The notes under the pieces: model-generated | What the model was told of the DNA's origin: nothing | The model's input: only the letters and a program-made list of their open reading frames with translations | The model's database searches: none | Position numbers and translations under genes: made by a program | Source: an uncultured Verrucomicrobiae bacterium | GTDB taxonomy: Bacteria > Verrucomicrobiota > Verrucomicrobiia > Limisphaerales > Palsa-1400 | NCBI GenBank assembly: GCA_963702845.1 | Contig: OY969763.1 | Span: forward strand, 288,001 to 352,000 | Direction of reading: 5' to 3' | Length of the DNA stretch: 64,000 nucleotides | Shown here: piece by piece, positions 6,267 through 28,820 of the stretch | Position numbering within the stretch: position 1 is the stretch's first letter | How the letters are laid out: each line of letters opens with the position of its first letter

Positions 6267-8093
6267 ATGGGAGATTTTGTTCTCGATTTTCGTCCGCGCC
6301 AGCAGCGGCAGCTTTCAAAGGCTGCGGCTGCGCTGACGTTCGTCGACGGAACGAAGGTTCATGTGTTCGACGAACCGGAGTTCGGACTCATTTTGACGAC
6401 TGTTGATGACCCGGCATTGTGGGCGCCATTTCGCTCGCCGGACGGAAAACTGCTCGTCGCACTGAATGGCAGGGTTGCTCTGTCCCAGAAGGAATGGGAC
6501 GCAGCAGCACGAAGGGTTGGGCCGGGTGGACTCGCCTGCAAAAATATTTACGAGCTCTATCGTTCAGGCGGCAAGTCGGCATTGCAGGAACTGAACGGAG
6601 GTTTCACTGCGTTCGTTTATGACAGGGAAGCCGGCGCATTCCATCTTGTCACCGACCGTTGCGGCATGGCTGTCGTTTATGGTCCGCAGGCGCTTGCGGG
6701 ATCGTTGGTGTTCAGTTCGCATCCGGACGCACTTGCCACGTTGCTTGGCGAGGAGCAAAACCTCGATCTGATTTCTCTTACTCAGTTTTTAATGGCTGGG
6801 CATCTAACGTTTCCATTCACCTACTACGATCGTGTGCGCGCGTTGGATTTGGGTACGATCTACACCTTTGCAGTGGATGAAAGCGGGACATCAGTGCAGT
6901 CGAAATCGAAGTACTTTGATTTCAATTTCACGATCGACGGTGCTTCCGTCGATGATCTCGCCGGCACCCTCGCGCAAGCCTTTGGGAATGCCATAAAGAA
7001 ACGAACCTTGCCGTTGTTAGGCCAATCTTTTGTCGGCCTGAGCGGCGGACTCGACTCTCGCGCGATTTTGGCGGCGGCACCCGAACGTGGTCATGTCCGC
7101 TCGTTCAACTTGTTCGATCAAAAGAATCTGGAATACCGGACCGCGAAGCGGTTGGCCAATTCCATGAGTGTTGAACTCGTTCCATTTCAACGTGATTTCG
7201 ATTACTACGCCAATACGGCAGAAGCCGGCGTGCGCATTTCCGGCGGGGTCGGTTCTATCGCCAGCAATCATTTCCTCGGGGTTCGGGACAAGCTGGCGGC
7301 CTTGGGCGCCCAAAATTTACTGACTGGCTGTTACTGCGACTATCTGCTCAAGGCGCTTGCCCTCAACACTCAAGAGCAACAGCTTTCCAGACAGGAACAG
7401 CTTTCGACCTTTAATTTTGGTTTTTACCGGCCGTTTTATTGGCTGAACGGTTCGCAACAAGAGAACGTTCGCCAGCGTTTTGAACAGATGTTTCCCGAAG
7501 GCAACAAATCAAAGTTAACCGAGGACGACTGGTTGCAAATCGAGCGGAAGCGAAGTTTTCCACTGGCGTATGAAGGCGACCTCGCCCAACGCGTGATCCC
7601 CCTGCGAACGATGCCCTGGTATCTCCCGATCGTGGACAACGAAATCATCAACACCTACCTGAAGATCCCGTCTCGTCTGAAACTCAACGGGGCGATCTTT
7701 AAAACAATGGCTCGGATTGTCTGTGGTGATGTCGCCAGCAAAATTCCCGACAGCAACTCCGGCGCGGCTCTTGATGCTGCTGGTTGGAATTATTCGATTC
7801 ACCGCTATCTCTCCGCATTGCAAAACCGGATCGCACACAAGGTCCGGCCTCGCATGGCGACTCGGGGATCCTGGCCGAACTGGGAGTACTACATCCAAAA
7901 CAGCGCGAAAATTACCCAGCTTTGGTTGCGCAAGAATGATACCGCCAGTCAGGTGTTTGTCTCATTGCTGGGTTACGACCCGACATCACGGCCTCCGGCA
8001 TCGTTCCGCGGGCGCGATGTCGAACTGTTCATGCGCTTTTTCACTTTGAAACTTTGGCTCGAACAACGCGCCGTCGGTATTGCACGAAATTGA
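6267..8093 (+). CDS. Asparagine synthetase-like ATP-dependent amide ligase, lacking the N-terminal catalytic Cys
   Basis: Ntn-like N-domain (LNGGF, VTDRCG) and LSGGLDSR PP-loop; begins MGDF rather than MCGI. Confidence 0.8.
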   Translation: MGDFVLDFRPRQQRQLSKAAAALTFVDGTKVHVFDEPEFGLILTTVDDPALWAPFRSPDGKLLVALNGRVALSQKEWDAAARRVGPGGLACKNIYELYRSGGKSALQELNGGFTAFVYDREAGAFHLVTDRCGMAVVYGPQALAGSLVFSSHPDALATLLGEEQNLDLISLTQFLMAGHLTFPFTYYDRVRALDLGTIYTFAVDESGTSVQSKSKYFDFNFTIDGASVDDLAGTLAQAFGNAIKKRTLPLLGQSFVGLSGGLDSRAILAAAPERGHVRSFNLFDQKNLEYRTAKRLANSMSVELVPFQRDFDYYANTAEAGVRISGGVGSIASNHFLGVRDKLAALGAQNLLTGCYCDYLLKALALNTQEQQLSRQEQLSTFNFGFYRPFYWLNGSQQENVRQRFEQMFPEGNKSKLTEDDWLQIERKRSFPLAYEGDLAQRVIPLRTMPWYLPIVDNEIINTYLKIPSRLKLNGAIFKTMARIVCGDVASKIPDSNSGAALDAAGWNYSIHRYLSALQNRIAHKVRPRMATRGSWPNWEYYIQNSAKITQLWLRKNDTASQVFVSLLGYDPTSRPPASFRGRDVELFMRFFTLKLWLEQRAVGIARN

Positions 8094-8098
8094 CCCCG

Positions 8099-9055
8099 AT
8101 GACACCTGACCTGTCCATTATCATCGTCAATTGGAACACGCGCGATTTGTTGGAGAATTGTTTGCGGTCGATAGAAAATTCGCGTGGTGATCATTCAATC
8201 CAGACCATCGTCGTCGACAACAACTCAGCCGATGGTTCTCGGGAAATGGTCGAAAATTTGTTTCCACAGATGCTGCTGATTAACTCCGGTGGAAACGTTG
8301 GATTTGCTCGTGCAAACAATGCCGCTCTGCCGCGAGCGACATCGCCGCTGGTTCTGTTTTTGAACCCCGATACCGAAGTTTCCAGGGCCGGCCTGGATAA
8401 GATGATTTCTTTCATGAAAGCGGACCCATCGGTGGGCGCGTTGGGCTGCAAAATCCGCAACAGTTGCGGCAGTGTCCAGCAATTGGGCATACAACGATTC
8501 CCGTCGCCCGTCGGCGAATTGATGAAGATGCTGTGCCTTTCAGAACGGACACAGCCTCGTCTGGGCCGATTGTTTCCATACCACGACCCCGAAAAATCGG
8601 GTGAAGTGAAAAAGCTTTTTGGCGCATGCCTGCTGGTGCGTCGTGCTGTGTTGGACAAGGTCGGATCGTTCGACGAGCGCTTCTTCATGTATTGCGAAGA
8701 TGTCGATCTTTGCCAGCGTATTCTCAAAGCTGGTTGGCGGCTTTATTATTTAAGCGAAGTAGAAATCTTGCACTTGGGCGGCAGCGCGAGCTCGAATGCA
8801 ACGAGCTATTTTTCCGTGCTGATGATGTGCGAATCATTGTCACAATTGATGGACAAGTATTACGGTAAGCTCGGGAGCGTGTCCTATCGCATTGCCACAT
8901 TATTGGGCGCTCAAGCCCGGCTGATGGTATGGTTTGCGTTGAGGATTTCGCGAACCGTTGGCCTGTTGCGCCGCAGTTGGTTGCCCCCAGCGACTTCAGG
9001 GAAGGTACGTGACCATCACGAAATGGTGCCTGGGGCTGCAGAAGCCGGTCGTTAA
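8099..9055 (+). CDS. Glycosyltransferase family 2 (possible +1 frameshift near 9005; true stop may be 9062)
   Basis: IIVNWN, VDNNSAD, LNPDT and FMYCEDVDL motifs; ATG 8099 chosen because it follows the upstream stop. Confidence 0.88.
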   Translation: MTPDLSIIIVNWNTRDLLENCLRSIENSRGDHSIQTIVVDNNSADGSREMVENLFPQMLLINSGGNVGFARANNAALPRATSPLVLFLNPDTEVSRAGLDKMISFMKADPSVGALGCKIRNSCGSVQQLGIQRFPSPVGELMKMLCLSERTQPRLGRLFPYHDPEKSGEVKKLFGACLLVRRAVLDKVGSFDERFFMYCEDVDLCQRILKAGWRLYYLSEVEILHLGGSASSNATSYFSVLMMCESLSQLMDKYYGKLGSVSYRIATLLGAQARLMVWFALRISRTVGLLRRSWLPPATSGKVRDHHEMVPGAAEAGR

Positions 9056-9164
9056 GCAATAGACGCAGAGGCAGGGGCAGGACGTCTGAACTCTCTGAGA
9101 ACTAGTTACAATTAGCTCGCATTCGGTAGCTCTACGGAACCATTTGCTAATCTCTGTTGTTGCA

Positions 9165-9180
9165 TGGCACTACTTCTGCT
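9165..9180 (+). promoter_or_regulatory. Putative sigma-54 (-24/-12) promoter
   Basis: TGGCAC-TACTT-CTGCT, one mismatch from TGGCAC-N5-TTGCW, 21 nt before ATG 9202. Confidence 0.55.
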
Positions 9181-9201
9181 AGTTTCAAGTTGCGGGAGCT
9201 A

Positions 9202-11817: not shown

Positions 11818-11917
11818 CTTGGTTCGATCTCTCGGATCTACATTTCCGGTTCCCGTAGTTTTTCAGCAGCTGTAATAAACCTATTTCCTTTCGACGGAAA
11901 TAGCGTTCTTCGAAACG

Positions 11918-13468
11918 ATGAAAACACTGTTATACATCATGCTGATTGCAGGTTTTCTGGAGGTAACGGTTAACACGAATGCCGCGGATTGGTATGTGGA
12001 CACAAGGTGCAACGGGAACAATTCCGGTGCGGATTGGGCCAATGCCTGGACGAATCTTGCAGGCATTGCTTGGAACCGTATCAACCCGGGCGATACGATT
12101 TTCCTGTCGGGCGGTCGATATGACGAGACGCTCGTGGTGCGCAAATCCGGTTTATCCAACGCGCCGATCACGATTCGAGTGGCGCAGGAGCGCGAGCACA
12201 ATTCTCCTGTCCTGTTGAATGGAATTGGTCTCGGCGCGCAGCACTGGATCACCATAAACGGCGCCTTGAGTGATTCGTTTACCGCCCCGACAAATATCCT
12301 CGGCCTCGGCCAAATGACCAATAATATTGGAATTTTAGCGCAGAATACCAACGGCACCGCCATTTATATGACAAGCCCGAATGGCGTTCACCTTTCCTGG
12401 GTCGGCGTCCGCGCTTCACGGGGTCCTAATGGTTACGACGCGAACGGCATTCAGGCGAACATGACCAGTCGCGGTCCGACCGACAATAACGTGATCAAGT
12501 ATTGCTGGATCAACCATGTCGAGGATGACGGGATCAACTGGATTGGAAACGATCCGGCCACACACTTTGGCCATCAGGAGGTCGCCTTCTGCATTATCGA
12601 GTACGTTGGTGATGACGGTATGGAAGCGAATCACGGATTCACCATCCACGATTGCTTGCTGGGCCCTTCTAGGTTTTTGCATGGGCACCCGGATGGGATT
12701 CAAAGCGTGGGCAGCTATTGGAAAATTTATAACAACGAATTCCAGGATTTCGGTAACAGTTGGATTCGCGAGCAGGCTACTCAAACCAACCATCATGACA
12801 TCTGGATCTACAATAATTTATTTCTGAGTGGCATCCGGACGAACGAATCGTTTCTGCTCTCGAATACCGGCATTGAGGTCGTGCAATATGCCGCGTGGCT
12901 GGGTGAAGTGCCGGCCATGACCTGGAGCAACATTATCGTTGTCAATAATACATTCTTCAATGCCACCGGTGCTGTTCGCGGCGCCATCAACTGGGCCAAG
13001 CGCGACGAGGACACTCCTGGGGCATTTGTTCACAACGTTTTTCTGACCAACTGTATGTTCGTCAACAATTTGGTCGTGGATTGCGCCTACGGCGCGTCCG
13101 CTCCGTGGCAGCCGGTGAAGACCTCACGGCCGTGGGGTGCGGCCGTAAATTACGCTCCAGAGGACCTCATCTGGGATTACAATACGATTACCGGATTCAA
13201 GGCGAACGAGGCGACGCGGGTCGTCTATTCGGGTGCCGCATACTTGCGCGCCGAAATGCTGGGCGCGGGTTTGCCGTGGCAACACAACAGTAGCTTGCTG
13301 GTTCAATTCGTTGATCCGCAACATTGGGATCTGAGACTTGCTGGGTCAAATACATCCGCTGCCATCAACGGCAAAAACCTGTCGCCATTGTTTAATTACG
13401 ACATTTTGAATGCTCCGAGACTCGCGACGGGAACCTGGACCCGCGGTGCCTACGCGTTCTCACATTGA
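11918..13468 (+). CDS. Secreted beta-helix protein, paralogue of the N-terminal part of 9202..11817
   Basis: Signal peptide; NNSGADWANAW, INPGDTIFLSGG, HPDGIQ, HDIWIYNNLF and TNCMFVNNL match the upstream gene. Confidence 0.75.
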   Translation: MKTLLYIMLIAGFLEVTVNTNAADWYVDTRCNGNNSGADWANAWTNLAGIAWNRINPGDTIFLSGGRYDETLVVRKSGLSNAPITIRVAQEREHNSPVLLNGIGLGAQHWITINGALSDSFTAPTNILGLGQMTNNIGILAQNTNGTAIYMTSPNGVHLSWVGVRASRGPNGYDANGIQANMTSRGPTDNNVIKYCWINHVEDDGINWIGNDPATHFGHQEVAFCIIEYVGDDGMEANHGFTIHDCLLGPSRFLHGHPDGIQSVGSYWKIYNNEFQDFGNSWIREQATQTNHHDIWIYNNLFLSGIRTNESFLLSNTGIEVVQYAAWLGEVPAMTWSNIIVVNNTFFNATGAVRGAINWAKRDEDTPGAFVHNVFLTNCMFVNNLVVDCAYGASAPWQPVKTSRPWGAAVNYAPEDLIWDYNTITGFKANEATRVVYSGAAYLRAEMLGAGLPWQHNSSLLVQFVDPQHWDLRLAGSNTSAAINGKNLSPLFNYDILNAPRLATGTWTRGAYAFSH

Positions 13469-13488
13469 CAGGCCAGCCGGCAGAAAAC

Positions 13489-14688
13489 ATGCAAAAGCCA
13501 TTCGACAAGCCCATTTACGTCACGCGCCCTTTTCTGCCACCGCTCTCGGAATTTTCCGCGGGGCTGCAGGAAATCTGGGACAACGCCTGGCTGACCAATA
13601 ACGGACCGGTCCTTCTGCGCTATCAGAAGGAACTTTGCAAATATTTCAACTCCGACAACCTGTGCCTGTTTAACAATGGCACGCTCGCGCTCCAGATCGC
13701 CCTGCAAGGGATGCAGTTGTCGGGCGAAGTGATCACCACCCCGTTCACCTTTGTCGCAACGACGCACGCGCTTTTCTGGAACAAAATTCGCCCGGTGTTT
13801 GTCGACATCGAGCCGGATCATTACACCCTCGACCCCGAAAAGGTTGAGGCGGCGATTACCCCCTGGACGACTGCCATTCTTGCCGTCCACGTCTACGGCT
13901 ATCCTTGCAAATTGAAGGAATTGGCCGAGATCGCCCGACGGCACAACATCATGCTGCTCTACGATGCCGCGCACGCTTTCGGTGTCACCGTCGATGGAAA
14001 ATCCATCGGTCATTACGGGGATTTGAGCATGTTCAGCTTCCACGCGACGAAGCTTTACCACTCGATAGAGGGCGGCTTGCTCATGTTCTCTGACCCCGGG
14101 AACAAGAAGATTTTCGATTATCTCAAAAATTTTGGGTTCGAGAACGAACTCGAAGTCGTGATGCCGGGCACCAACGCCAAAATGAACGAGTTCCAGGCCC
14201 TCATGGGATTACAGGTGTTGCAACATCTGGGCGGGATCATTGACCGGCGCAAACACATTGATGCCGTTTATCGCGACCGTTTGCGATTTATTCCCGGCGT
14301 TCGATTTCCCGCGTTGCCGCCGGATAATATCCAGGTCAATTACGCCTATTTTCCCGTGGAAATAGATGCTGATGCTTTCGGGATGAGCCGCGATGATCTT
14401 TATGCAGCGCTCCAGCGCTACAATGTTTTCACTCGCCGCTACTTTTATCCGCTGGTCCCCGATTTTTCCTGTTACCGCACATTGTCGGTTTCGGCAAAGG
14501 ACCCGTTGACCACCGCGCGTCGCGTCGCGAAATCCATTCTCACATTGCCCATTTATGATTCGCTGCCGTTGCAACACGTGGAGCGAATTTGTGAAATGAT
14601 CGAGCATATCCGCTGCTCTAATCAACAGACCGCCAAAGCAGCAAATCAACCAATGGCCTTCGTGCCGCCTTCCGCCAAAGTCGCATAA
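13489..14688 (+). CDS. DegT/DnrJ/EryC1/StrS sugar aminotransferase (VioA-like)
   Basis: WLTNNGP, YDAAHAFG, SFHATK (PLP lysine), NAKMNE and RRYFYP motifs. Confidence 0.92.
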   Translation: MQKPFDKPIYVTRPFLPPLSEFSAGLQEIWDNAWLTNNGPVLLRYQKELCKYFNSDNLCLFNNGTLALQIALQGMQLSGEVITTPFTFVATTHALFWNKIRPVFVDIEPDHYTLDPEKVEAAITPWTTAILAVHVYGYPCKLKELAEIARRHNIMLLYDAAHAFGVTVDGKSIGHYGDLSMFSFHATKLYHSIEGGLLMFSDPGNKKIFDYLKNFGFENELEVVMPGTNAKMNEFQALMGLQVLQHLGGIIDRRKHIDAVYRDRLRFIPGVRFPALPPDNIQVNYAYFPVEIDADAFGMSRDDLYAALQRYNVFTRRYFYPLVPDFSCYRTLSVSAKDPLTTARRVAKSILTLPIYDSLPLQHVERICEMIEHIRCSNQQTAKAANQPMAFVPPSAKVA

Positions 14689-14705
14689 GCGAATGTCCGC
14701 GTTTC

Positions 14706-15365
14706 ATGCGTCCGAAAATTGCCATCTGGGGTGCGTCTGGCCATGCAATCGTCGTTGCCGATATTTTGCGGTTGCAAGGCGAATACGAAGTCGTCGGTCT
14801 GTTGGACGATACGAACCCGGCCCGTCGCGGACAACGCGTCGGCGGCGTGGAGGTGTTGGGTGGCCGGGACCAACTCGTGGTCCTGCGCAGCCACGACGTG
14901 AGGTTTCTAATCGTTGCGATCGGAAACTGCGAGGCCCGTTACAGGGTCGCGCTCGCTGCCAAAGAGCACGGTTTTGAGTTTGCGACCGCGATTCATCCCG
15001 GCGCAATCGTTGCCAGTGACGTCAAAATCGGCGAAGGCACAGTCATTGTCGCTGGCGCGGTCATCAATCCCGCAGTTCGCCTCGGTGCTCATGTCATCGT
15101 CAACACCTGCGCCAGCGTCGATCACGAATGTGTCGTTGGCGACGCGGTCCACATCGGTCCCGGTTCTCGTTTAGGTGGCTGCGTTGTTGTCGGCGATGGT
15201 GCCTGGATTGGAATCGGCGCGACAATATTTGACCGGATTGAGATCGGATGTCGGTCCATAATTGGAGGCGGCTCGGTAGTGACAAGACACGTTCCCAAAG
15301 ACGTCGTTGCTTATGGTGTTCCCGCAAAAGTTGTACGCGCATTACACGGCGAACCAAGCTCCTAG
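14706..15365 (+). CDS. Sugar N/O-acetyltransferase, NeuD/PglD family
   Basis: IWGASGHA, AIGN, VDHEC, hexapeptide repeats and GVPAK. Confidence 0.9.
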   Translation: MRPKIAIWGASGHAIVVADILRLQGEYEVVGLLDDTNPARRGQRVGGVEVLGGRDQLVVLRSHDVRFLIVAIGNCEARYRVALAAKEHGFEFATAIHPGAIVASDVKIGEGTVIVAGAVINPAVRLGAHVIVNTCASVDHECVVGDAVHIGPGSRLGGCVVVGDGAWIGIGATIFDRIEIGCRSIIGGGSVVTRHVPKDVVAYGVPAKVVRALHGEPSS

Positions 15366-15366: not shown

Positions 15367-15522
15367 ATGGTAGTTTCGAACAAAGAAGATTTAGCTTATT
15401 TAGGATTTCTGGATGGAATCCGAGGCGGCGCTGCTCTGTGGGTTTTGGTAGCGAATCAACCGCCCACAGTTGCCACAACCAGCGCGTACGATTACGTGCC
15501 TGTAAATACCGGAAAAGATTAA
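15367..15522 (+). pseudogene. Truncated remnant of an acyltransferase-3 (OafA-like) gene
   Basis: MVVSNKEDLAYLGFLDGIRGGAALWVLV matches the LDGLRGxAAxxV start of the family, then degenerates and stops at 51 aa. Confidence 0.6.
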
Positions 15523-15524
15523 CC

Positions 15525-16970
15525 GTGTCTCTCAAACACAAAACACTGAACGCCCTTTCGTGGAGCTTGGTTCAGGAAATAGCGGGGCGCGGGTTGCAAC
15601 TTGGCGTTGGCATCCTGCTCGCGCGGCTGCTTGGCCCCAAGGAGTTTGGGCTGCTCGCAATGCTGACGATTTTCATCGCGGTTGCACAGGCGCTGGTGGA
15701 AAGCGGATTTGCTTCAGCATTGATTCAACGTAAAGAGCCCACGGAAGCCGACGAATGTTCGGTCTTCTACTTTAATTTGCTGATTGCAGGGGTGTTGGTG
15801 GCGTCACTCTATTTGGTCGCGCCGTGTATTGCGCAGTTCTACAAACAACCTCAGCTGACGGCGCTGATGCGTGCATTGTCCTGTATCCTGCTGATCAATA
15901 GCGGCTGTGTAGTTCAGAATGCGTTAATGGTACGCCGGCTCGATTTCAAGCGTCAGGCAGTGGTGGCGGTTTGCAGCCTGATCGTTTCCGGCGTTGTCGC
16001 CGTCATCATGGCATGGCGCGGATTTGGCGTGTGGAGCCTGGTGGGTCAGCAGGTGAGTGCCAGTCTCATGCGTTTAATGATGCTGTGGCAGATGAATCCA
16101 TGGCGGCCCAAATGGCTTTTCAGCACGAAGTCATTGCGCCAACTATTTGCTTTTGGTTCTGGAATGATGGCTTCGACACTGACAAGCCAGGTGTGTGACA
16201 ATCTCATGTCGTTGGTGATTGGCAGGATGTTCTCGCCGGTGATGCTCGGCTTTTACAGTCGCGCCGTGACCTTACAGGATGCCGCCTCGCAGGCCCTGGC
16301 CAGCATGGCCAATCGCGTCACTTTCCCTGTGTTTTCGCAGATTCAAGATGATCCACCGCGAATGAAGCGTGCCGTGCAAAAGGCGATGACGACCATTGCC
16401 TTTGTGCAGTTTCCGATGTTGATTGGATTGGGGGCAGTTGCCAGACCGCTTGTGCTTTTCTTGCTTACCGATAAATGGGCCCCCACCATTCCTTATCTGC
16501 AACTGCTTTGCTGCGCAGGGTTGCTTTATCCCGTGCACCTCTTGAATCTCAGCGTGCTCACTTCGATGGGCCGCTCCGACCTTTACTTCCGCCTTGGGGT
16601 GATTAAGCGCGTTTTGCAGGTTGCGGCAATGCTTGTCACTTTTAAGTGGGGCGTCCTCGTTATGGTTTGGGGGCAGGTTGTCGTCAGCTTTATTTCATTT
16701 TTTGTGAACAGTTTTTATACCAAACGGTTTATCGGTTATTCGATTCCTGAGCAGATGCGCGACCTGTTCCCGTATGCCACGGCTTCCTGTGCAATGGGTT
16801 TGGCGGTTTCGGTCGCAACCTTGCCGATTCCCGAAGGACACGCCGGGCAACTTTTCTTCAAAATCGCACTCGGGGCGATCATTTACGGGGTGCTCGGTAG
16901 CGTTTTTCCGTTCGGCGCTGTAAGGGAGCTAAAGAGTATCGTCCGCAGTCGAGCCGTTGCTGTTACCTAA
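15525..16970 (+). CDS. wzx: Polysaccharide flippase (Wzx/WzxC family)
   Basis: LARLLGPKEFG, ALIQRK, GFGVWSLVGQQ, LGFYSRA and many TM segments; GTG start 15525. Confidence 0.9.
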   Translation: MSLKHKTLNALSWSLVQEIAGRGLQLGVGILLARLLGPKEFGLLAMLTIFIAVAQALVESGFASALIQRKEPTEADECSVFYFNLLIAGVLVASLYLVAPCIAQFYKQPQLTALMRALSCILLINSGCVVQNALMVRRLDFKRQAVVAVCSLIVSGVVAVIMAWRGFGVWSLVGQQVSASLMRLMMLWQMNPWRPKWLFSTKSLRQLFAFGSGMMASTLTSQVCDNLMSLVIGRMFSPVMLGFYSRAVTLQDAASQALASMANRVTFPVFSQIQDDPPRMKRAVQKAMTTIAFVQFPMLIGLGAVARPLVLFLLTDKWAPTIPYLQLLCCAGLLYPVHLLNLSVLTSMGRSDLYFRLGVIKRVLQVAAMLVTFKWGVLVMVWGQVVVSFISFFVNSFYTKRFIGYSIPEQMRDLFPYATASCAMGLAVSVATLPIPEGHAGQLFFKIALGAIIYGVLGSVFPFGAVRELKSIVRSRAVAVT

Positions 16971-18919: not shown

Positions 18920-19765
18920 ATGAATCGAATTAAAATCAGGGTTCTCATGCTCACGCACAACCGTCCGGGCTACACCGAGCTGGCCCTCTCGCGGCTCTGC
19001 GAAACCTTGCCCGATGATGCGCGCCTCACGGTTTGGGATAATGGATCGACTGGGGAGATGATTTCGCTCTTGAAAAAATTCGAACGTCACCCGCGTATCG
19101 AGCGCATCGTTTACAATCGCAAGAACGAAAAGCTTCGTGGTCCCACCAACTGGTTCTGGCAGTCCATCGGAGAAGCGGAATACGTGAGCAAGGTCGACGA
19201 TGATGGCCTGATGCCGGACAATTGGACGCAAATACTAGAACAGGCTCATCGCGATATTCCTGAAACTGGAATCCTCGGAACGTGGCGCTTTCCAGATGAA
19301 GATTATGTTGCCGATCTAGCCAGGAAAAAGATACAGACCTACGGGTCGCATCAGATTTTGCGAAACTGTTGGGTCGAGGGCTCTGGATATTTGATGAAGC
19401 GGTCGGTCATTGAACGGATCGGCCTGATCAAAGACGGCGAATCTTTCACGACATATTGTGTTCGCGCAGCCGCCGCCGGTTTTCTCAATGGCTGGTATTT
19501 TCCGTTCTTATACCAGGAACATATGGACGATCCGCGGGCGCCGCATACCGAAATGAAAACAGACGCGGACTTTCGTCGGCTTGAACCGCTAAGTGCGTCC
19601 ACCTTCAAGGTCAAATCGCGTGATGAATGGACAAACAAACTCCGACAGTTGGCGAAAAATCTACAGGCCTGCTCCTACGACCCGACCGATTATTTGGGGC
19701 CGAAGGCATGGGTGAAGCAACGCATGTGTAGAGTGCTGCGCAAGCCATACGCCCCACGTGCTTAA
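18920..19765 (+). CDS. Glycosyltransferase family 2-like
   Basis: LTHNRP, WDNGS and KVDDD motifs. Confidence 0.8.
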   Translation: MNRIKIRVLMLTHNRPGYTELALSRLCETLPDDARLTVWDNGSTGEMISLLKKFERHPRIERIVYNRKNEKLRGPTNWFWQSIGEAEYVSKVDDDGLMPDNWTQILEQAHRDIPETGILGTWRFPDEDYVADLARKKIQTYGSHQILRNCWVEGSGYLMKRSVIERIGLIKDGESFTTYCVRAAAAGFLNGWYFPFLYQEHMDDPRAPHTEMKTDADFRRLEPLSASTFKVKSRDEWTNKLRQLAKNLQACSYDPTDYLGPKAWVKQRMCRVLRKPYAPRA

Positions 19766-19790
19766 AGACTAAACGTCTCCTTTAACATCT

Positions 19791-21629
19791 GTGTCCGATT
19801 TCCTCCTAAGCTTCGACTCTGCGCCACAACAGGCACCATTGCTTCGCCTGTTGCAGCAGCCATATGGCGATCATCCGCCGGTTGGGCGCGTGTTGCCCTT
19901 GAAAATGGGTGGCGCGCTCGGAGTTCTCGAAGACAAAATCGCGCATGGACGCAACCTTCTTTCTCGCGGGACCCTCACGCTCGCCTGGGTCGGGGACCTT
20001 GTCTCGCCTCCGGGCCACAGCCTCGAAAAAGCGTTCAGTCGTTTGGCTCCAGCAGCTCGTCCCGAAGAATTGAAGGAGATGCTGCGGAACTCCGGTCTCC
20101 TCGAGTCGTTGGGCGGCGCATTCGCTGCTGTCCTCGCCAGTGACGAGTGTGTTGCTCTCATCACTGATCCACTTGGTAGTGTTCAGGTTTATATCGGCTC
20201 AACGCCGGATGGAAAAATTGTTGCCGCGGGCACTCACGCGGACCTCGTTGCGGCTGTGACCGGTGTCGACTCGATCGATCCCGCTTCGGTTTGCGATTTC
20301 ATGAACGCCGGCATCGCCTGTTGCCCGCACACCATTCACCGGCACGTGCGTGAACTCGCGCCTGGAACCGTTGCGCTGTTCAGTCGCCAACCTGACCATG
20401 CGATTCGCTGTGAGGAATTTCAATATTGGGTTCCGCCTTCCGAGCTCACTGGACGGATCGATCAGGAAGAACTTACCCGGGAGTTTGTCGCTCGTTGGAA
20501 AAATGCGGTCCATGCTCGCTGCGATGGTAACCTGCTCGGCATTCAATTGAGCGGTGGTCTGGATTCGCGCATGGTCATGGCAACGATTCCGCGCGAGAAA
20601 ACCGCCATCGGATTAACCCTTTGCGACCAGATCAACCGCGAGGCCCGCATCGCCCGCACTGTAGCTCAATGTTATAACCGCGAATGGCGAACCCTTCAGC
20701 GTGACCCGGAATATTTGGGCCGGACCGCCCTGGATTCGATTCGTCTCATGGGCTGCGAGGGCGAATGGCAACATGCGCACTGCCTCGGGTTCGCCGAATC
20801 GATTCGTAGCATGGGGGTCGACACCGTGTTCAGCGGCCTCTACATGGACAATAATTTCAAAGGATATTACGCAAAGGACATCGTGCGCATCGGTCGCCTC
20901 GGCGGCTTGCTCCCGGCGGTATACAAATCCGTTTCACTGGATTACATCGATCAAATCAGCCCGTTTTGCCGCGAAAAAGTTAAAACAGATTTCTTGGACG
21001 AGTCTCTGGCGCGACGCAAACGATTTTATGCCGGGCACTTCGCTCGGAACCGTTCGAGTCAATGGGAATGGCTGGATGGCTACCCCAATTCACAAGCCAG
21101 CGACAATACCGGTTGGGTCGCTGAACGGCGCGTCATGCGTTTGCGCCTGCCAGTCATGGATCGACCGCTCGTAGAACTGGCCTTCCAAATCCCGGCGACA
21201 ATGAAAGCCGACGGACAGTTCTTCGAAAAGGCTGTGGCCCGCGCGCTCGGGCCGGGGTGTCGCATCCCCAATGCGAACGACGGTGTCCGTCCCGGCAGTG
21301 GCCACTGGTCGCGCCTGGCCCAACGGACAATTCGCAAACTCCAAAACAAAAAGCGGAATACGTTGGCGCGTTTGGGTGCCAAAGTTGAAGTGCCGCACTC
21401 GTGGCACGATTTCCAGACCTACTGGCGTGAAAGCGCCACCCTCGACCAATTGCGCCGCGACCACGGTCACAATTTGCAGGACTTTCTAGAAGTATTTAAA
21501 CACGACCCTTTACCACAGCTTCACGACAAGAATCTTAATTGCCAGTTTGGCTATCGTTTTCTGCAATTGGCCGTGTGGCGTTCTGTTATGAAACAATACC
21601 GTGCCGTCGCTGCGGGTCGCTCTCTTTAA
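19791..21629 (+). CDS. Second asparagine synthetase-like amide ligase, lacking the N-terminal Cys
   Basis: LGGAFA, ITDPLG and LSGGLDSR; begins MSDF; shares IPxxNxG and SWxxW/F segments with 6267..8093. Confidence 0.8.
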   Translation: MSDFLLSFDSAPQQAPLLRLLQQPYGDHPPVGRVLPLKMGGALGVLEDKIAHGRNLLSRGTLTLAWVGDLVSPPGHSLEKAFSRLAPAARPEELKEMLRNSGLLESLGGAFAAVLASDECVALITDPLGSVQVYIGSTPDGKIVAAGTHADLVAAVTGVDSIDPASVCDFMNAGIACCPHTIHRHVRELAPGTVALFSRQPDHAIRCEEFQYWVPPSELTGRIDQEELTREFVARWKNAVHARCDGNLLGIQLSGGLDSRMVMATIPREKTAIGLTLCDQINREARIARTVAQCYNREWRTLQRDPEYLGRTALDSIRLMGCEGEWQHAHCLGFAESIRSMGVDTVFSGLYMDNNFKGYYAKDIVRIGRLGGLLPAVYKSVSLDYIDQISPFCREKVKTDFLDESLARRKRFYAGHFARNRSSQWEWLDGYPNSQASDNTGWVAERRVMRLRLPVMDRPLVELAFQIPATMKADGQFFEKAVARALGPGCRIPNANDGVRPGSGHWSRLAQRTIRKLQNKKRNTLARLGAKVEVPHSWHDFQTYWRESATLDQLRRDHGHNLQDFLEVFKHDPLPQLHDKNLNCQFGYRFLQLAVWRSVMKQYRAVAAGRSL

Positions 21630-21635
21630 TCAACC

Positions 21636-22340
21636 GTGAAAAATCCCTCGCAGAACTCCAAAACGGACGTCTATTACAATCGCGATCGTCCTTCAATCCA
21701 GGCGCTGGTCAAAACCGGACCGAACCGCGTTTTAGACCTCGGCTGTGGTTCCGGCGCTGTCGGAAAACGTCTGAAAGAGCAGGGGAAAACTGCTGAATTG
21801 ATCGGCGTTGAACTGTTCGAGGATGCCGCCGCTCAAGCTTCGCGTGTGTATGACAAAGTATTTACCGGCGACATAGAAATTCTCGATCTGCCGTATCAGG
21901 CACACTTCGACTACATCATCTGCGGCGATATTCTCGAACATCTCAAAGACCCATATTCGGTCGTTCGCCGTATTGCCGGCTGGTTAAAACCAGATGGCCA
22001 GTTCATCTGCAGTCTGCCGAATGTTAGACATTGGCCAGTAACTGCGAACCTGATCTTTCGGGGTGCCTGGGACTACCGTGATGCGGGCGTCATGGATCGC
22101 ACACACCTTCGGTTCTTCACCCGCCGTTCGTGCTTTGCCATGTTGCAGGACGCTGGATTCGAGGTCATTCAAAGTCGAATGCTCATTTTTGGTAGAAAGT
22201 ATCAACTTCTCAATGGTTTGACCTTTAACCTGTTTGACGAATTTCTCGGTTCGCAAATCGTCGCTCTGGCTAAAAAACATCCGGCATCAAACGTCAACCG
22301 ATTCGAAAAAAGCGTAACACCTGGAAACCCAAGGGCCTGA
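21636..22340 (+). CDS. Class I SAM-dependent methyltransferase (Methyltransf_23-like)
   Basis: VLDLGCGSG, DILEHL, SLPNV and DRTHLRFFT motifs. Confidence 0.88.
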   Translation: MKNPSQNSKTDVYYNRDRPSIQALVKTGPNRVLDLGCGSGAVGKRLKEQGKTAELIGVELFEDAAAQASRVYDKVFTGDIEILDLPYQAHFDYIICGDILEHLKDPYSVVRRIAGWLKPDGQFICSLPNVRHWPVTANLIFRGAWDYRDAGVMDRTHLRFFTRRSCFAMLQDAGFEVIQSRMLIFGRKYQLLNGLTFNLFDEFLGSQIVALAKKHPASNVNRFEKSVTPGNPRA

Positions 22341-22403: not shown

Positions 22404-24137
22404 ATGCATAAGTCCTTATCAATAACGCTTGTTGGTTTCGCATTGTCTGTGTCGACGATGTTCGGCGCCGCTCCGGAAATCCTCTCGTCCAGCCCAGCCA
22501 TTGGTTTCATCTGGACGAACCCGGTTTCGGGCAATTTGTCCATCATTGAGCAGCGCACCAATCTCTCCACGGGCGCTTGGACGCCGTTTTTCTACGACAC
22601 TGGGAGTAACGGCCTCCGCACGACTGCAGCTCCGATCTCGCCGTCAAACACGGCATTCTATCGCATCGGCGTTCAGACGAACATCCCCGACCCTTCCCTG
22701 ATCATGCACCTGCCTTTCGACAACGCATTCTCAAATGGCGTCGTGCTCGACATCTCCGGACATGGCAACAATGGATTACGATACGGCAAACCCTGCTGCC
22801 CCACTAACTGGCCAACGTCTACCGTTGGCCCCGATGGCAGCCAGGCGGCGGAGTTCCATTGGTACATTGACGGTTGGGGGCTCTACGGAAAATCAGGGGA
22901 CTATGTGGGTATCCCTTACTCGCCATCTTTCACCAATCTTACACAGGCGACCATTTGCGCATGGGTGCATTATTACACCGCGATGTATAATGACATCAAC
23001 AATGACCATAACGACAGCATTCTCGATACCGGCCAGGATGTGGCCGGCACTTTCAATCTTGGGCGTGCCTATTCGGATCATACCTCATTCAACACCTATG
23101 TTGGCCCAGGCAACCAGGTGCAAATAATCGACTTTCCGGATGTCGCGCCCACTGGTGACACCGGCGGCTGGCATTATTACTCCATCACGTTTAGCAACGG
23201 ACTCGTAAAAGGATATTTCGACGGCAAGCTATTTCAGACCACCAGTGTCCCCGTAGCCGCACTGACAATGGCAGGATATTATATCGGTATTGCCGGATGG
23301 ACCTTCAACGGAACTCCACAAATGGATTTGTCAGTGGATGAGTATCCAAATAATGCCTGGATTAACGGGGCTGTCGATGACGTGCGCATTTACAATCGCG
23401 CTTTGGATGATGCTGAAATCAACGCGTTATACATAAGCTTCGATAAGGCAACGCCATCCCCTCCGTTTAACGTTACAGCTTCGCCGGCCTCCAGCAGTCA
23501 GGTGGTTCTTCATTGGTCGTCGGACAGCGGTACGTTCCCGATTGCAGGATACGTCTTACGCCGCAACGGCACTGTTATTGGCACTTCGCCCAACGCGATG
23601 TTTTTCGATAGTGGCCTCGCCGCTCAATCGACTAATTCTTATACAGTGCAGTGCTTCGACGTTGGCGGGCACTATTCTACCGAGTCTGAGATTGTGACAA
23701 CCACCACGTTTCCAAGTGGCGTCGACATTGTCCTTGATGATGCGGACCTGGCTCCCTGGGTCACTAAGGTCGGAGCATGGAACGTCTATGCCACCCAGCC
23801 CGGCTATTACGGCAGTGGATTTCTAAGCAGTGACAAGGTTGCTGGAAAGACTATCACCATTCGACCTCCTTTGCCGGAAAGTGGAACATACAGCGTTTAC
23901 ATGCGCTATCCTGGTACATCCAGTATCGGCAGTGTGCTTTCCAGCGCAGTTCCAGTCGACATCGTGCATGGTGGAACAACTAATACAGTGATCGTCAACG
24001 AACAGAGTGGATTCGGAATATGGAAGTTGCTTGGCCAGTTTCAATTGTCCGCGGGCACAAACGACTTCGTCCAGCTACGAACCGACGGAACCGACGGTTA
24101 TTACGTTTTTGCAGACGCATTTCTGTTTATCAAATGA
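22404..24137 (+). CDS. Secreted LamG + fibronectin type III + golvesin/Xly-CBD-like protein
   Basis: Signal peptide; LamG ending INGAVDDVRIYNRAL; FN3 (PSPPFNVTA...YTVQCFD); C-terminal GTYSVY...WKLLGQF...ADAFLF. Confidence 0.72.
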   Translation: MHKSLSITLVGFALSVSTMFGAAPEILSSSPAIGFIWTNPVSGNLSIIEQRTNLSTGAWTPFFYDTGSNGLRTTAAPISPSNTAFYRIGVQTNIPDPSLIMHLPFDNAFSNGVVLDISGHGNNGLRYGKPCCPTNWPTSTVGPDGSQAAEFHWYIDGWGLYGKSGDYVGIPYSPSFTNLTQATICAWVHYYTAMYNDINNDHNDSILDTGQDVAGTFNLGRAYSDHTSFNTYVGPGNQVQIIDFPDVAPTGDTGGWHYYSITFSNGLVKGYFDGKLFQTTSVPVAALTMAGYYIGIAGWTFNGTPQMDLSVDEYPNNAWINGAVDDVRIYNRALDDAEINALYISFDKATPSPPFNVTASPASSSQVVLHWSSDSGTFPIAGYVLRRNGTVIGTSPNAMFFDSGLAAQSTNSYTVQCFDVGGHYSTESEIVTTTTFPSGVDIVLDDADLAPWVTKVGAWNVYATQPGYYGSGFLSSDKVAGKTITIRPPLPESGTYSVYMRYPGTSSIGSVLSSAVPVDIVHGGTTNTVIVNEQSGFGIWKLLGQFQLSAGTNDFVQLRTDGTDGYYVFADAFLFIK

Positions 24138-24194
24138 GGAAAATCATCTCGGCCCCTCTGCTGATGCCCTTCGCGCGGCATCCCCGTTTTATCC

Positions 24195-25592
24195 GTGGCT
24201 ATTAACATTGTCATCATCTGCTTCGTCGCGCTCGCGGTTCAGTTTTTCCTCCGGCGGGACTTTGACAAGGGTGTGGCGGCAGCCGTTTTCTTTTTGGTTC
24301 TTTTGCCGCGCGAGATCGGTATCCCATTGCCCGGTGCGTTGCCCGAACTAACAGGTCATCGGGTCGTTCTTTTGGTATTCCTGTTTAATGTGATGCCGCG
24401 CTTGCGTTGGGCGAACCTGGCGCCGGTTTCATCGATCGTCCTGTTGCTCTGCCTTGAAGGCGCATGCCGATTGCTTTCGACCTTCACTGCAGTGGATGCG
24501 GCCGCGAGTATAAAAACGGTGATCGACTATTGGATTGAGACGGTCTTGTTCGTCGTGATCATGCTAAGCGTTTTGAAGGAGCGCCGGACGATCCAATTCG
24601 TCGCCTGGAGCAGCCTCTTCGCCTTGGTGATCATCGCCGCATTAGGAACGATCGAGAAATACACTGGAAGAAATCTCGTCGCAGAAATCGTTCCTGACAT
24701 GGTCAAGCAGTCTGATGGTGTCTCCGCTACGTTTCGGCACCGGATTCTTTTCGGCTACGCGATGGCGATGGGATTTCCGATTGCCTTGGCCTTGCGAAAT
24801 ACTGGCGAGGGGCGGTGGAAGCGCTGGTTGCCTAAGATCGGGGTTCTTCTGTTGCTCGCTGCCTCTTATTATAGCGGAAGTCGCGGCCCTTGGGTCGGTT
24901 GCGCGTTGGGCGGTATAGTGTTGGCGTTCACCGCAGGCCGATCAATGCGACGGAAACTTACCTTTCTCGCCATCATCGGGGTTCTGTTGCTAGCCAGTCG
25001 ACCAGGTGTTTACGATACGATTTCAAGTCTTTGGGGTCAGAGCTTTGACGAGAACACCGTCAAAGGAAAGTCCACCGATTATCGTCGTCTGTTATGGCAC
25101 ATCGCCTACGAAGAATTGACCAAATCGGCCGATCACGCAGTGTTCGGGTACGGAGGGCACAGCACGGAACTGTTGGACGTAAGTGCCTACTTCGATGCCG
25201 GAGCGGGAGGGACCACTGAGGGATTAGGCCATACTAGCTGGGACAGCCAATTGGCCTCCGATTTCATGCAATTTGGATTCCTCGGGTTTGGAGTTGAGCT
25301 GCTCCTTTATTTTGCGATTTTCAAAGTCTTTCGCCGTGCCTGTCTTAATGTTAGGGACGGGCCTGATCGAGAATTTATCGGCGCATGTTGCGCCGTCGCA
25401 GTCATCTTCTTTTGGGCGATGACAACGGTGGCCATCTTTAATCCGCAATTATACTTCTTATTTTGGGTATTCGTTGCGATTGCCGCCCGCTTTTACACCG
25501 CAACTGACGATACTGAAGATAACATCAGCGATTTTTCCGAGACTGATCCGATAAAACCAGTGTTTAGCACCGCGGCCTTGCATGCGGAATAG
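24195..25592 (+). CDS. O-antigen ligase/polymerase (Wzy_C) family membrane protein
   Basis: Many TM segments; ATFRHRILFG, SGSRGPW, YRRLLW and VFGYG motifs; position in a Wzx locus. Confidence 0.8.
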   Translation: MAINIVIICFVALAVQFFLRRDFDKGVAAAVFFLVLLPREIGIPLPGALPELTGHRVVLLVFLFNVMPRLRWANLAPVSSIVLLLCLEGACRLLSTFTAVDAAASIKTVIDYWIETVLFVVIMLSVLKERRTIQFVAWSSLFALVIIAALGTIEKYTGRNLVAEIVPDMVKQSDGVSATFRHRILFGYAMAMGFPIALALRNTGEGRWKRWLPKIGVLLLLAASYYSGSRGPWVGCALGGIVLAFTAGRSMRRKLTFLAIIGVLLLASRPGVYDTISSLWGQSFDENTVKGKSTDYRRLLWHIAYEELTKSADHAVFGYGGHSTELLDVSAYFDAGAGGTTEGLGHTSWDSQLASDFMQFGFLGFGVELLLYFAIFKVFRRACLNVRDGPDREFIGACCAVAVIFFWAMTTVAIFNPQLYFLFWVFVAIAARFYTATDDTEDNISDFSETDPIKPVFSTAALHAE

Positions 25593-25613
25593 AACCACCT
25601 CCCAAACTAGCCT

Positions 25614-26894
25614 ATGACAACGAACAGTTTGATATTTGATCGCCGCGAATCCGAAGTCCGTTCCTACTGTCGCGCCTTCCCGGCCGTTTTCAACAAAGCG
25701 CAAGGCGCTTTCCTCTACGACGAAGCCGGCACTCGCTACCTGGACTTCTTCGCCGGTGCCGGGACGCTCAATTACGGCCACAATAATCCTGCAATCAAAA
25801 AAGCCGTCATCGACTACCTCGAGCGTGACGGCATTGTCCATGCACTCGATTTGTGGACCGGCGCGAAACGTGCCCTTCTCGAAGCATTCGAGACCAACAT
25901 CCTCAATCCACGTAATCTCGATTATAAGATCCAGTTCACAGGCCCCACCGGCACCAATGCCGTTGAAGCCGCTCTCAAGCTTGCGCGCAAAGCAAAGAAT
26001 CGCTCCAACATCGTCGCCTTCACCAACGGTTACCATGGCCTTTCCGGAAACGCGCTTTCCACCACCGGCAATCGCCACTTCCGCACGGAAGCATTCGTTA
26101 ACCGGCTCGACGTTTCGTTCCTGCCTTTTGACGGCTATTGCGGTGACGGCTTCGATTCGTTGAAATATTTCCAACGGTTGATCGAGGACAACAGTAGCGG
26201 CCTCGATCTCCCTGCCGCTGTCATCCTCGAAACCATCCAGGCCGAAGGCGGAATCAATATTGCCCGCAAAGAGTGGCTCCAGGGCCTCGAAGCGCTCTGC
26301 CGCAAACACGATATTCTGTTGATCGTCGACGACATCCAGGTTGGCAACGGTCGCACGGGCGATTTCTTCAGCTTCGAATTCGCCGGCATCCGTCCCGACC
26401 TCGTCACGGTCTCAAAAGCCATCGGCGGCTTGGGTCTTCCGATGTCACTTGTCTTGATCAACCCAAAGATCGATCTCTGGAAACCAGCGGAGCACACCGG
26501 CACCTTCCGGGGAAATAACCTCGCTTTCGTCGCCGCCACCGCGGCATTGCAGTATTGGCAAAACAACGAATTTTCCAACGAGATAAAGCGCAAAGGAGAG
26601 CTGTTGCGCTCCTTGCTCGAAGCCGTCAAAGACAAATTCCCGTCACTCGATTGCAAAGTGCGCGGACGCGGCCTCATTTACGGCCTCGAAATCCCGCAGC
26701 CCGGCTTCGCCAAATTGGTTTCCCGCGAAGCGTTCCAGCGAAAGCTTATTATCGAGCTGGCAGGTGCCGACGATCAAGTGGTGAAATTCCTCCCGCCGCT
26801 GATAACTGACGATCAATCCCTGCGCGATGGCGTGCAGATCGTTGATCAAAGTATTGCTGCAATCCTCAAGGGTGCGATTAAAGCCGGTGGTTGA
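25614..26894 (+). CDS. ectB: Diaminobutyrate--2-oxoglutarate transaminase
   Basis: ESEVRSYCR, DFFAGAGTLNYGHN, GPTGTNAVEAALKLARK, VDDIQVGNGRTG and EHTGTFRGNN motifs. Confidence 0.93.
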   Translation: MTTNSLIFDRRESEVRSYCRAFPAVFNKAQGAFLYDEAGTRYLDFFAGAGTLNYGHNNPAIKKAVIDYLERDGIVHALDLWTGAKRALLEAFETNILNPRNLDYKIQFTGPTGTNAVEAALKLARKAKNRSNIVAFTNGYHGLSGNALSTTGNRHFRTEAFVNRLDVSFLPFDGYCGDGFDSLKYFQRLIEDNSSGLDLPAAVILETIQAEGGINIARKEWLQGLEALCRKHDILLIVDDIQVGNGRTGDFFSFEFAGIRPDLVTVSKAIGGLGLPMSLVLINPKIDLWKPAEHTGTFRGNNLAFVAATAALQYWQNNEFSNEIKRKGELLRSLLEAVKDKFPSLDCKVRGRGLIYGLEIPQPGFAKLVSREAFQRKLIIELAGADDQVVKFLPPLITDDQSLRDGVQIVDQSIAAILKGAIKAGG

Positions 26895-27006
26895 TTGGAA
26901 TGGATTTGGGCCGATGCAATGACGTGGATCCAACGCCCGGACACTTGACTCTGCCGCTTCACAGGCCCAGCATCCTCAAAAATGAGACATTGTGAAAGCA
27001 ATTCTC

Positions 27007-27046
27007 CCTTAATCGCGCCAGTGTCAAAAGCAATTTCCTATCAGTA
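27007..27046. repeat. 40-bp direct repeat, copy 1 (left of methyltransferase)
   Basis: CCTTAATCGCGCCAGTGTCAAAAGCAATTTCCTATCAGTA; 36/40 identical to 27870..27909. Confidence 0.9.
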
Positions 27047-27079
27047 AAGAATCTTGGGACGTTTACGAGTGCAACTTCT

Positions 27080-27799: not shown

Positions 27800-27869
27800 C
27801 GCACGGATAGTAACCGCGTCTACTGCTTATCGGTTGGCGCGGCGTCTGCCCCATCGGCCTGCTTCGCGT

Positions 27870-27909
27870 CCTTAACCGCGCCAGCGTCAAAAGTAATTTC
27901 CAATCAGTA
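27870..27909. repeat. 40-bp direct repeat, copy 2 (right of methyltransferase)
   Basis: CCTTAACCGCGCCAGCGTCAAAAGTAATTTCCAATCAGTA. Confidence 0.9.
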
Positions 27910-27956
27910 TCAGCAACTAATTTCCGCGTCGAAGCCCATTCTTACGTAACTCCCCC

Positions 27957-28820
27957 ATGATCTCGCTGTGGCAGCCAATGACCGTTGCAGAATTCGCTGA
28001 TTTTGAGCGCATTCTTGACCCGCAAATCATCAGTGCCAATGGCAACCACTGGCGACGAGTTCGCCCGTTCTTCTTTCGCCCCATATTGCCTTATCGCGAA
28101 TATTCGGCGAATTCGCTGCGACCACCCTGGCAATGCACTATCGGCGGCTTCCAACACGCATTGCCAACAGAGACCGGTTCCAATTCCATTCTTGCTTGCC
28201 TGCTCTTCCAGGACGTGCCGATCTATTCACTCAATTCGTTGGATTACAATCGCAAGCGCCAGGTCAAAATCGCCGCGAAGAATTTTACGATCCGGCCCAT
28301 GACCGATGTTGCCGAGTTCAAGAACAAAGCTTATCCCGTCTATCTGTCGTTTTATCAACGGACGCAATACCAGTACGGCGCTGACCGGTGCGCGCGCCCT
28401 TTCTTTGAAAAGTGGGCCGACTCGCTTTTTGCCGCGCCCAAAGCGTTGGTTCTGGGCGCATGGAAAGATGACTGCCTCGGCGGCGTCAGCATCAGTCAAC
28501 TGGTGGAAGATACCCTGCATTATTCCACCTTCTTTTGTGACGAAGAATCGTTGCGTTTGAATGTGTCCGATTTGATGCTGCATTTCATTCGTGAAAACAT
28601 CGCCGGGTATCCGGGCGTAACTTCTGTATTCGCTGGAATGTACAAAGGCGGCAATGGCCTCGATTCCTTTTACCTCCTTAGAGGCGGCAAGCTCGTCCGC
28701 AAACCAGCCGCACTGCATCTTAGTCCAATGGCCAAAGTATGTTTGCAGTATTTGCTCTCTCGGCAGTACGCCTTACTTCAAGGCAAACCCGAAAATGTTG
28801 CCGCCCAAGGCGCGGCGTAA
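27957..28820 (+). CDS. Hypothetical protein, probably GNAT/FemAB-like acyltransferase fold
   Basis: LNSLDYNRKRQVKIA, RPFFEK, SDLMLHFI and GLDSFYLLRG resemble the Acetyltransf_6/FemAB pattern; weak. Confidence 0.5.
   Translation: MISLWQPMTVAEFADFERILDPQIISANGNHWRRVRPFFFRPILPYREYSANSLRPPWQCTIGGFQHALPTETGSNSILACLLFQDVPIYSLNSLDYNRKRQVKIAAKNFTIRPMTDVAEFKNKAYPVYLSFYQRTQYQYGADRCARPFFEKWADSLFAAPKALVLGAWKDDCLGGVSISQLVEDTLHYSTFFCDEESLRLNVSDLMLHFIRENIAGYPGVTSVFAGMYKGGNGLDSFYLLRGGKLVRKPAALHLSPMAKVCLQYLLSRQYALLQGKPENVAAQGAA

Follow-up and report, generated by a model that had tools for sequence, protein, structure and literature searches.

A conserved GT2, Cys-less AsnB-fold and orphan EctB module in a Verrucomicrobiae exopolysaccharide locus, with a predicted role in glycan decoration by diaminobutyrate

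The stretch analysed here (the window) comprises 64,000 nucleotides from an uncultured Verrucomicrobiae bacterium (contig OY969763.1, positions 288,001 to 352,000; one-contig assembly, 89.8% complete, hereafter G000) and carries a Wzx/Wzy exopolysaccharide locus, transcribed from one strand, that runs from wzc (position 26) to a DUF218 gene (30859) and is followed by genes for a beta-barrel protein, an exosortase and a tetratricopeptide repeat protein. Three plus-strand genes of this locus form a conserved module: a GT2 glycosyltransferase (18920..19765; PF00535, also GT2 by Atlas features), an AsnB-fold protein that lacks the Cys2 residue (19791..21629) and an EctB-type diaminobutyrate transaminase (25614..26894) that stands apart from any ectoine operon. 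An earlier note had proposed a pathway for L-2,4-diaminobutyrate (DAB) made up of ectB, two Cys-less amide ligases and a Fem/GNAT-like protein. The underlying association is real and conserved, but it is narrower than first proposed and comprises the GT2, one ligase and ectB rather than all four named genes. We assign a probability of roughly 60% to the reading that this module decorates the Wzx/Wzy repeat unit with amide-linked DAB.

The ectB product and its missing ectoine partners

The ectB gene begins 21 nt 3′ of the stop codon of a wzy-like gene (24195..25592, plus strand), which encodes a Wzy_C-family polymerase/ligase-like membrane protein (PF04932). With 639 bits, the ectB product exceeds the TIGR02407 cut-off of 552, and it matches DAB transaminases of the PDB with E values of 6e-147 to 6e-155. 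When aligned with 50 EctB proteins from ectABC operons, 110 of the 124 columns conserved among the latter are fully retained in all eight EctB proteins of the glycan-locus clade, and Lys268 (VSK), which would be the pyridoxal phosphate (PLP) lysine, is not among the 14 less-kept columns. Family membership thus strongly suggests that the 25614 product transaminates aspartate semialdehyde to DAB.

The source genome carries only this one ectB. Profiles for ectA and ectC had no match in its whole assembly, and both detected their targets in the ectABC control genome G419. With the same control, ectC was absent from G000, G382, G180, G070, G056, G384 and G402 (67–99% complete), and no ectA above cut-off was found in the first five of these. 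No ectoine pathway to go with this ectB was thus found. An IucA/IucC siderophore synthetase is likewise missing from the source genome, and group II decarboxylases (PF00282) occur in two of five genomes (G000 and G382), the only copy in the source genome being a glutamate decarboxylase; in the source genome, neither a siderophore route independent of nonribosomal peptide synthetases (NRPS) nor a Dat/Ddc diaminopropane route was found. The earlier note had placed ectB directly behind the polymerase gene and had seen neither ectA nor ectC nor a siderophore synthetase in the window; the searches extend this negative finding to the entire assembly. Next to ectB in G382 and G384 lies a second aspartokinase gene, an addition to the earlier interpretation; the two products share 64% identity with each other and 42–45% with the housekeeping copies. 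Since ectoine operons often carry an aspartokinase gene as well, this arrangement points to DAB synthesis, not to its breakdown or to a sugar substrate.

Two AsnB-like proteins without Cys2

As described before, both AsnB-like proteins keep the SGGLDS motif and lack Cys2. The 6267..8093 product (plus strand) begins with MGDF and that of 19791..21629, which has a GTG start, with MSDF; the two are about 25% identical. An overlooked upstream start carrying the Cys was discarded because relatives begin at the same alignment column. A canonical AsnB with an MCGI start is encoded elsewhere in the source genome. Among 120 homologs of the 19791 protein, SGGxDS is invariant (120/120) and 89 start with MSDF, the Ser position being Gly in the 6267 protein. 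The Asp expected downstream of this loop lies in SG-LYM-D, which aligns with SG-EGS-D. Cys2 is present in two of the 120 and in none of the 116 full-length representatives. The NGEIYN motif, which we take to be the glutaminase motif of class II AsnB, is found in none of either set (0/120 and 0/116) and is present in the source genome's own AsnB.

Fold prediction, made for the 19791 protein only, gave a model with a predicted local distance difference test (pLDDT) score of 94.7. Its nearest Foldseek matches are beta-lactam synthetase, TsnB9, CarA and AsnB (E 1e-16 to 1e-18, template modelling scores 0.5–0.64, 13–17% identity). The model suggests an N-terminal nucleophile (Ntn) plus PP-loop AsnB fold of the adenylating amide synthetase type. 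On the profile of the XrtA-associated amidotransferase TIGR03108 the two ligases score 54 and 63 (cut-off 817), and on the lasso cyclase profile NF033535 28 and 25 (cut-off 525). The nearest named homologue of the 19791 protein is 94% identical and labelled Limisphaerales; a search of plasmids returned distant relatives only (<30%). In several relatives the 19791-type ligase is fused to a GT4 glycosyltransferase (L146:9986-13234; P0092, P0107, P0115), which supports an action of the ligase on glycans.

Co-occurrence across genomes

We examined 401 genomes of the order. At E 1e-120, ectB was detected in six of them, five times in a glycan-type locus (G000, G056, G070, G180, G382) and once among NRPS-like genes (G023). 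A survey of Cys-less ligases, which scored at most three candidates per genome and set the type by best match, yielded 22 genomes, six with the 19791 type, all of which also have the 6267 type, and 16 with the 6267 type only. ectB is present in 6/6 of the former and 0/16 of the latter, so that the proposed conservation of an orphan ectB in exopolysaccharide loci with a Cys-less AsnB-like protein was borne out in further genomes. The count includes G384, whose ectB is a contig-end fragment missed at E 1e-120 and picked up by a looser search that covered 19 genomes of the sample; in the 16 ligase genomes without ectB this search retrieved only other aminotransferases of 26–37% identity. G402, of the same genus and outside the sample, carries both the 19791-type ligase and ectB. 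In a phylum sample, the 19791 type occurred in 2/401 genomes, both among the known carriers.

The GT2 gene 18920, which had no part in the earlier interpretation, is present in 6/6 other ectB genomes versus 0/16 without ectB. Since the 19791 ligase, this GT2 and ectB share one split, the module is defined as GT2-ligase-ectB. The GNAT-like gene (27957) occurs in 2/6 versus 8/16 of the same genomes and a CapA-like gene (28892) in 6/6 versus 13/16, the latter having close orthologs in 18 of the 22 Cys-less-ligase genomes versus 2 of 379 others. By their distribution, the 6267 ligase, the GNAT-like gene and the CapA-like gene were rejected as DAB-specific parts; the 6267 ligase and the CapA-like gene instead mark a wider backbone around the module. 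Of the pathway members named earlier, ectB and the 19791 ligase thus remain, while the 6267 ligase, found without ectB in 16/22 genomes, and the GNAT-like gene drop out. Kin genomes are not independent, and the Fisher values therefore overstate the association; contrasts between close relatives say more, the module being present in one of four backbone genomes of genus g30 (G384) and in one of three of family f11 (G382).

Gene order, phylogeny and residue patterns

The three module genes share one contig in G000, G180, G070, G382, L139 and L142 despite considerable shuffling, L139 being almost identical to G180 and hence not independent. In the source genome the order is GT2, ligase, methyltransferase, lamG, wzy, ectB; in G180 it is GT2, ligase, methyltransferase, ectB, lamG, wzy; and in G382 lamG, GT2, ligase, wzy, ectB, aspartokinase. 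The G070 locus reads GT2, ligase, vioA, vioB-formyltransferase, wzx, methyltransferase, GT2, lamG, ectB, wzy, and that of L142 GT2, ligase, flippase, FkbM methyltransferase, wzy, FrhB-like gene, pyruvyl transferase, ectB, lamG. The wzy-like gene is present in all eight glycan-clade ectB loci and usually adjoins ectB. The gene here called lamG (22404..24137, plus strand), which encodes a likely secreted protein with LamG, Fn3 and Golvesin domains by Pfam, lies close to ectB in L011, G180, G070, L139, L142 and G384. The S-adenosylmethionine-dependent methyltransferase gene (21636..22340, plus strand; Pfam), an accessory member, occupies the interval between ligase and ectB also in G180 and L139. 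Pyruvyl-transferase genes are found in G056 and L142, and the G070 locus contains a VioB-like acetyltransferase fused to an N-formyltransferase (L100:9674-11137).

A quick tree of 87 EctB sequences, a check suggested in the earlier note, places the eight Verrucomicrobiota glycan-locus proteins in one clade of their own (Shimodaira-Hasegawa-like approximate likelihood ratio test 99) that lies among ectABC enzymes. Separate from this clade is the EctB of a Lysinibacillus locus (L075), in which ectB stands between wzx and two ATP-grasp genes that are followed by vioA, an arrangement that recurs in G952 and G891 (3/151 genomes of the family sample). These loci (L075:6955-17896, L261, L262) hold wzx, ectB, two or three ATP-grasp ligase genes, vioA and rml genes, and no ectC was found with them. 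As far as sequences can tell, this shows a second, independent recruitment of ectB to glycan loci, together with ATP-grasp ligases.

Among the carriers, EctB proteins are about 70% and ligases about 50% identical. In the ligase tree, nine ectB-linked sequences are split from nine without ectB in their 5–22 kb flanks by a branch with a support of 100; this comparison leaves aside six short loci that carry no label, the incomplete loci L151, L154 and L161, and L148, which nearly duplicates L146. Conserved on the ectB side only are 21 positions, several of which group after the ATP/Mg motif SG-x3-D and at 429-440, a helix that, as in AsnB and beta-lactam synthetase, presumably binds substrate. 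Within it, Asp438 is present in 33/33 ectB-side ligases versus 3/45 others. On the side without ectB, the gene immediately upstream of the L149 ligase matches carboxyethyl-ornithine synthase (33.7%; L149:5739-6713), and an AlaDH/PNT-family gene (L155:1-753) lies one gene farther upstream of the L155 ligase. Both ligases belong to one subclade, and the amine-type genes nearby fit the idea of amine-specific ligase subfamilies. A capsule locus on a plasmid of E. coli also contains a carboxyethyl-ornithine synthase gene (L219:11968-13083); two of its genes are hypothetical and none is annotated as AsnB.

Proposed pathway and alternative explanations

In the pathway that we propose, aspartokinase and Asd yield aspartate semialdehyde by known chemistry, and EctB would transaminate it to DAB. 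Judging from its fold, the loss of the glutaminase residues and its co-occurrence with ectB, the 19791 protein probably spends ATP on adenylating a glycan carboxylate, presumably that of a uronic acid, after which an amine of DAB would displace AMP. The GT2 would transfer either the acidic sugar that later receives the amide or the sugar after it, and the amidated, zwitterionic repeat would then be flipped and polymerised. The 6267 paralog likely performs a separate amidation with another amine.

Several observations weigh against this proposal. ectB is also accompanied by lamG and wzy, whose distributions are not separated from that of the ligase. The glycan EctB proteins form one clade within one order, so that the co-occurrence partly reflects one inherited block, and pairwise identities of EctB and ligase are uncorrelated (Spearman 0.18, p 0.36, 28 pairs). 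No ectB was seen beside three ligases of the ectB-side clade (L140, L141 and L147, on contigs of 8.8, 7.1 and 3.4 kb), the module genes of G056, G384 and G402 are split over separate short contigs, and Asp438 is shared by the 6267 type. Furthermore, the window contains no nucleotide-sugar dehydrogenase that could supply the acceptor carboxylate; three homologs are encoded elsewhere in the genome, one of which is 73.6% identical to a dehydrogenase flanking the G180 locus. Finally, an ortholog (at least 67%) of the VioA-like sugar aminotransferase, which is encoded together with a VioB-like acetyltransferase at 13465..15365 (plus strand; Pfam/NCBIfam profiles), accompanies ectB in 4/6 other genomes versus 1/16 without it.

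The distribution of vioA fits an inverse linkage in which DAB or N-blocked DAB serves as acyl donor and its carboxyl group is joined to a VioA-made 4-amino sugar or to a deacetylated amino sugar. Amino-acylated Qui4N is common, and the Lysinibacillus-family loci also combine ectB with vioA. We nevertheless consider this linkage unlikely: the neighbouring VioB acetyl- or formyltransferase would cap the VioA-made amine, and in G382, which is 94% complete and has the locus on one contig, ectB, ligase, GT2 and aspartokinase are kept and no vioA ortholog was found. On chemical grounds, moreover, the adenylate of DAB, if free, should close into a five-membered lactam ring. Because of the G382 gene content and this lactamisation we prefer DAB as the amine. 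DAB might also be N-methylated or N-acylated by a nearby methyltransferase or GNAT protein before ligation, or the amide might be modified later. Methyltransferase genes between ligase and ectB in G000, G180 and L139, and different ones in other loci, speak for such a modification, yet no one methyltransferase or acyltransferase is common to all ectB loci examined and the distribution of the GNAT-like gene does not follow that of ectB, which makes it rather improbable.

We see an equally small chance that ectB is a passenger in a transferred block, with a role in metabolism or in making a small molecule, and that the Cys-less proteins form primary amides with free ammonia or use common amino acids. 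The single origin of the glycan EctB clade, the NRPS-like genes next to its nearest neighbour (L026), the uncorrelated EctB and ligase distances and the existence of related ligases without ectB would all agree with a passenger. Against it stand the retention of ectB through gene shuffling at the divergence noted above, the dedicated aspartokinase, the independent recruitment in Lysinibacillus and the failure to find, in the carriers, a route to ectoine, to a siderophore (own genome) or through a DAB decarboxylase. The cross-linking of chains put forward in the earlier note, in which both ligases would use both amines of DAB, draws on the diamine nature of DAB and on the 6267 type being present in all six module genomes. 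The survey lends this idea no support, since 16 of the 22 genomes have the 6267 type and no ectB; also, in neither ligase does anything precede the enzyme domain, and both require ATP, so that they would be cytoplasmic and act on single repeats prior to polymerisation. Cross-linking is thus very improbable. Scarcely more probable is a non-ribosomal peptide assembly line that works on the polysaccharide. In it, the pair of AsnB-fold ligases, together with the CapA/MslH-like protein as epimerase, would furnish the Wzy polymer with side chains or bridges of peptide that contain DAB and are in part D-configured, giving Verrucomicrobiota a peptidoglycan-like sheath that can be cross-linked. MslH epimerises a C-terminal residue, and by analogy the CapA/MslH-like protein could epimerise an amino acid amide-linked to the glycan.

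If decoration with DAB holds true, it would add a cationic substituent to bacterial glycan chemistry and assign a role to a branch of AsnB-fold enzymes that has no name and is now labelled 'asparagine synthase-related'. Glycan tailoring would then have taken up EctB on at least two occasions, with ligases of different fold, and a lone ectB should not be taken as a sign of ectoine synthesis. A testable rule would follow, namely that an amine-making gene next to a Cys-less AsnB-like gene predicts the substrate of the ligase. Few genomes carry the module and their hosts seem to be uncultured, so that its reach is limited, but its enzymes are amenable to assay in vitro.

Other genes of the locus

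The locus further encodes a Wzx flippase (15438..16970, plus strand; PF13440) and the CapA/MslH-like protein (28892..30040, plus strand), which exceeds the PF09587 cut-off, matches NF038314 weakly (56 vs 700) and has a PDB match at E 4e-14. Downstream of it lies an XrtC-like exosortase (33371..34309, plus strand; PF09721 above cut-off, TIGR04151 247.6, below the cut-off of 300). The protein of 27957..28820 (plus strand) owes its GNAT/Fem-like label to Atlas features only (10–14% GNAT members among its neighbours); it has no Pfam or NCBIfam match, BLAST did not align it with a TIGR03019-like protein, and its single-sequence structure model was unusable (pLDDT 33). A second copy (39%) adjoins a FemAB-like gene at G000:C1:1540775-1542681. 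One of the two deacetylases reported earlier turned out to be a deacetylase-like/GT4 fusion at 2340-4454 that frameshifts break into three frames and that is a single open reading frame (ORF) of 713–779 aa in G382 and G070; the break is possibly an assembly error because an FAD-binding gene (47890-49585) is likewise split.

Three large, probably secreted proteins (9157-13468 and 22404-24137) are kept in such loci, two with LamG/Fn3 domains and the third with no Pfam match; they are possibly polysaccharide lyases, hydrolases or lectins. A 1.26 kb region (30860-32118) has no long ORF and contains short repeated motifs, e.g. GGTAAAGAAACGGTAAACTTT. A scan for promoters and terminators gave a signal no better than chance, and no ATP-grasp match was found among the 44 window ORFs scanned. 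Upstream of the window (G000:C1:282311-287996) the locus continues with genes for a NusG/RfaH-type regulator-like protein, a priming sugar transferase-like protein, a DegT aminotransferase and a FemAB-like protein, BLAST matches being available for the latter two only.

Comparison with known systems

The 19791 protein shares its two-domain fold and PP-loop with beta-lactam synthetase and CarA (1mbz, 1q15), TsnB9 (7ylz) and AsnB (1ct9); unlike it, these enzymes, from which it differs at 13–17% identity, act on other substrates, and AsnB retains a working glutaminase. AsnB-like genes are also found in the exosortase exopolysaccharide loci of the XrtA/PEP-CTERM system (TIGR03108), while the proteins described here are Cys-less and score far below its cut-off. 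A parallel in logic is offered by the glucuronamide module of Campylobacter jejuni HS:2 (Cj1435, Cj1436/Cj1437 and Cj1438), whose amidoligase Cj1438 is presumably an ATP-grasp enzyme. The PLP enzymes Cj1436/Cj1437 provide a locally made amine with which Cj1438 amidates glucuronic acid after transfer to the chain (PMC11800397). Both modules would thus have an in-locus PLP enzyme for the amine, an ATP-dependent ligase acting on a sugar carboxylate and a GT2 physically tied to the ligase, whereas in C. jejuni Cj1438 releases ADP (PMC11800397) and assembly proceeds via an ABC transporter, as opposed to an AsnB-fold ligase, DAB as predicted amine and Wzx/Wzy assembly here.

A Ser-type AsnB homolog, PdmN of the pradimicin pathway, is reported to ligate D-Ala or D-Ser to a carboxylate, and in such ligases (pradimicin, TLN-05220) the N-terminal Cys is replaced by Ser or Ala (bioRxiv 10.1101/2025.10.30.685158). 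The 19791 protein has Ser and the 6267 protein Gly at this place; PdmN-type enzymes act on polyketides, and the 19791 protein is likened to them by their description, not by sequence. With the EctB and Ask_ect proteins of ectoine operons (PMC6915088), the module shares the same family at about 60% identity and sometimes a specialised aspartokinase, whereas it differs in having no detectable ectA or ectC, an EctB clade of its own and a glycan-operon setting.

Our literature search turned up neither a glycan with a DAB substituent nor a glycan cluster containing ectB; it was thin on carbohydrate journals and does not establish that none has been published. The review text and table rows seen list uronic-acid amides of Lys, Orn, Ser, Thr, Ala, Gly, Glu and carboxyethyl-Lys, include E. 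coli K40 and Vibrio cholerae VpsH, which resembles acyl-CoA ligases, and do not name DAB among the amides (PMC10609480, PMC13463779). The predicted product belongs to this class, the listed Lys and Orn amides being the closest homologues of a DAB amide. The module lies outside the glutamine amidotransferases, the TIGR03108 system and the ectoine pathway, resembles the C. jejuni module in its logic and predicts a lower homologue of the Lys and Orn uronamides.

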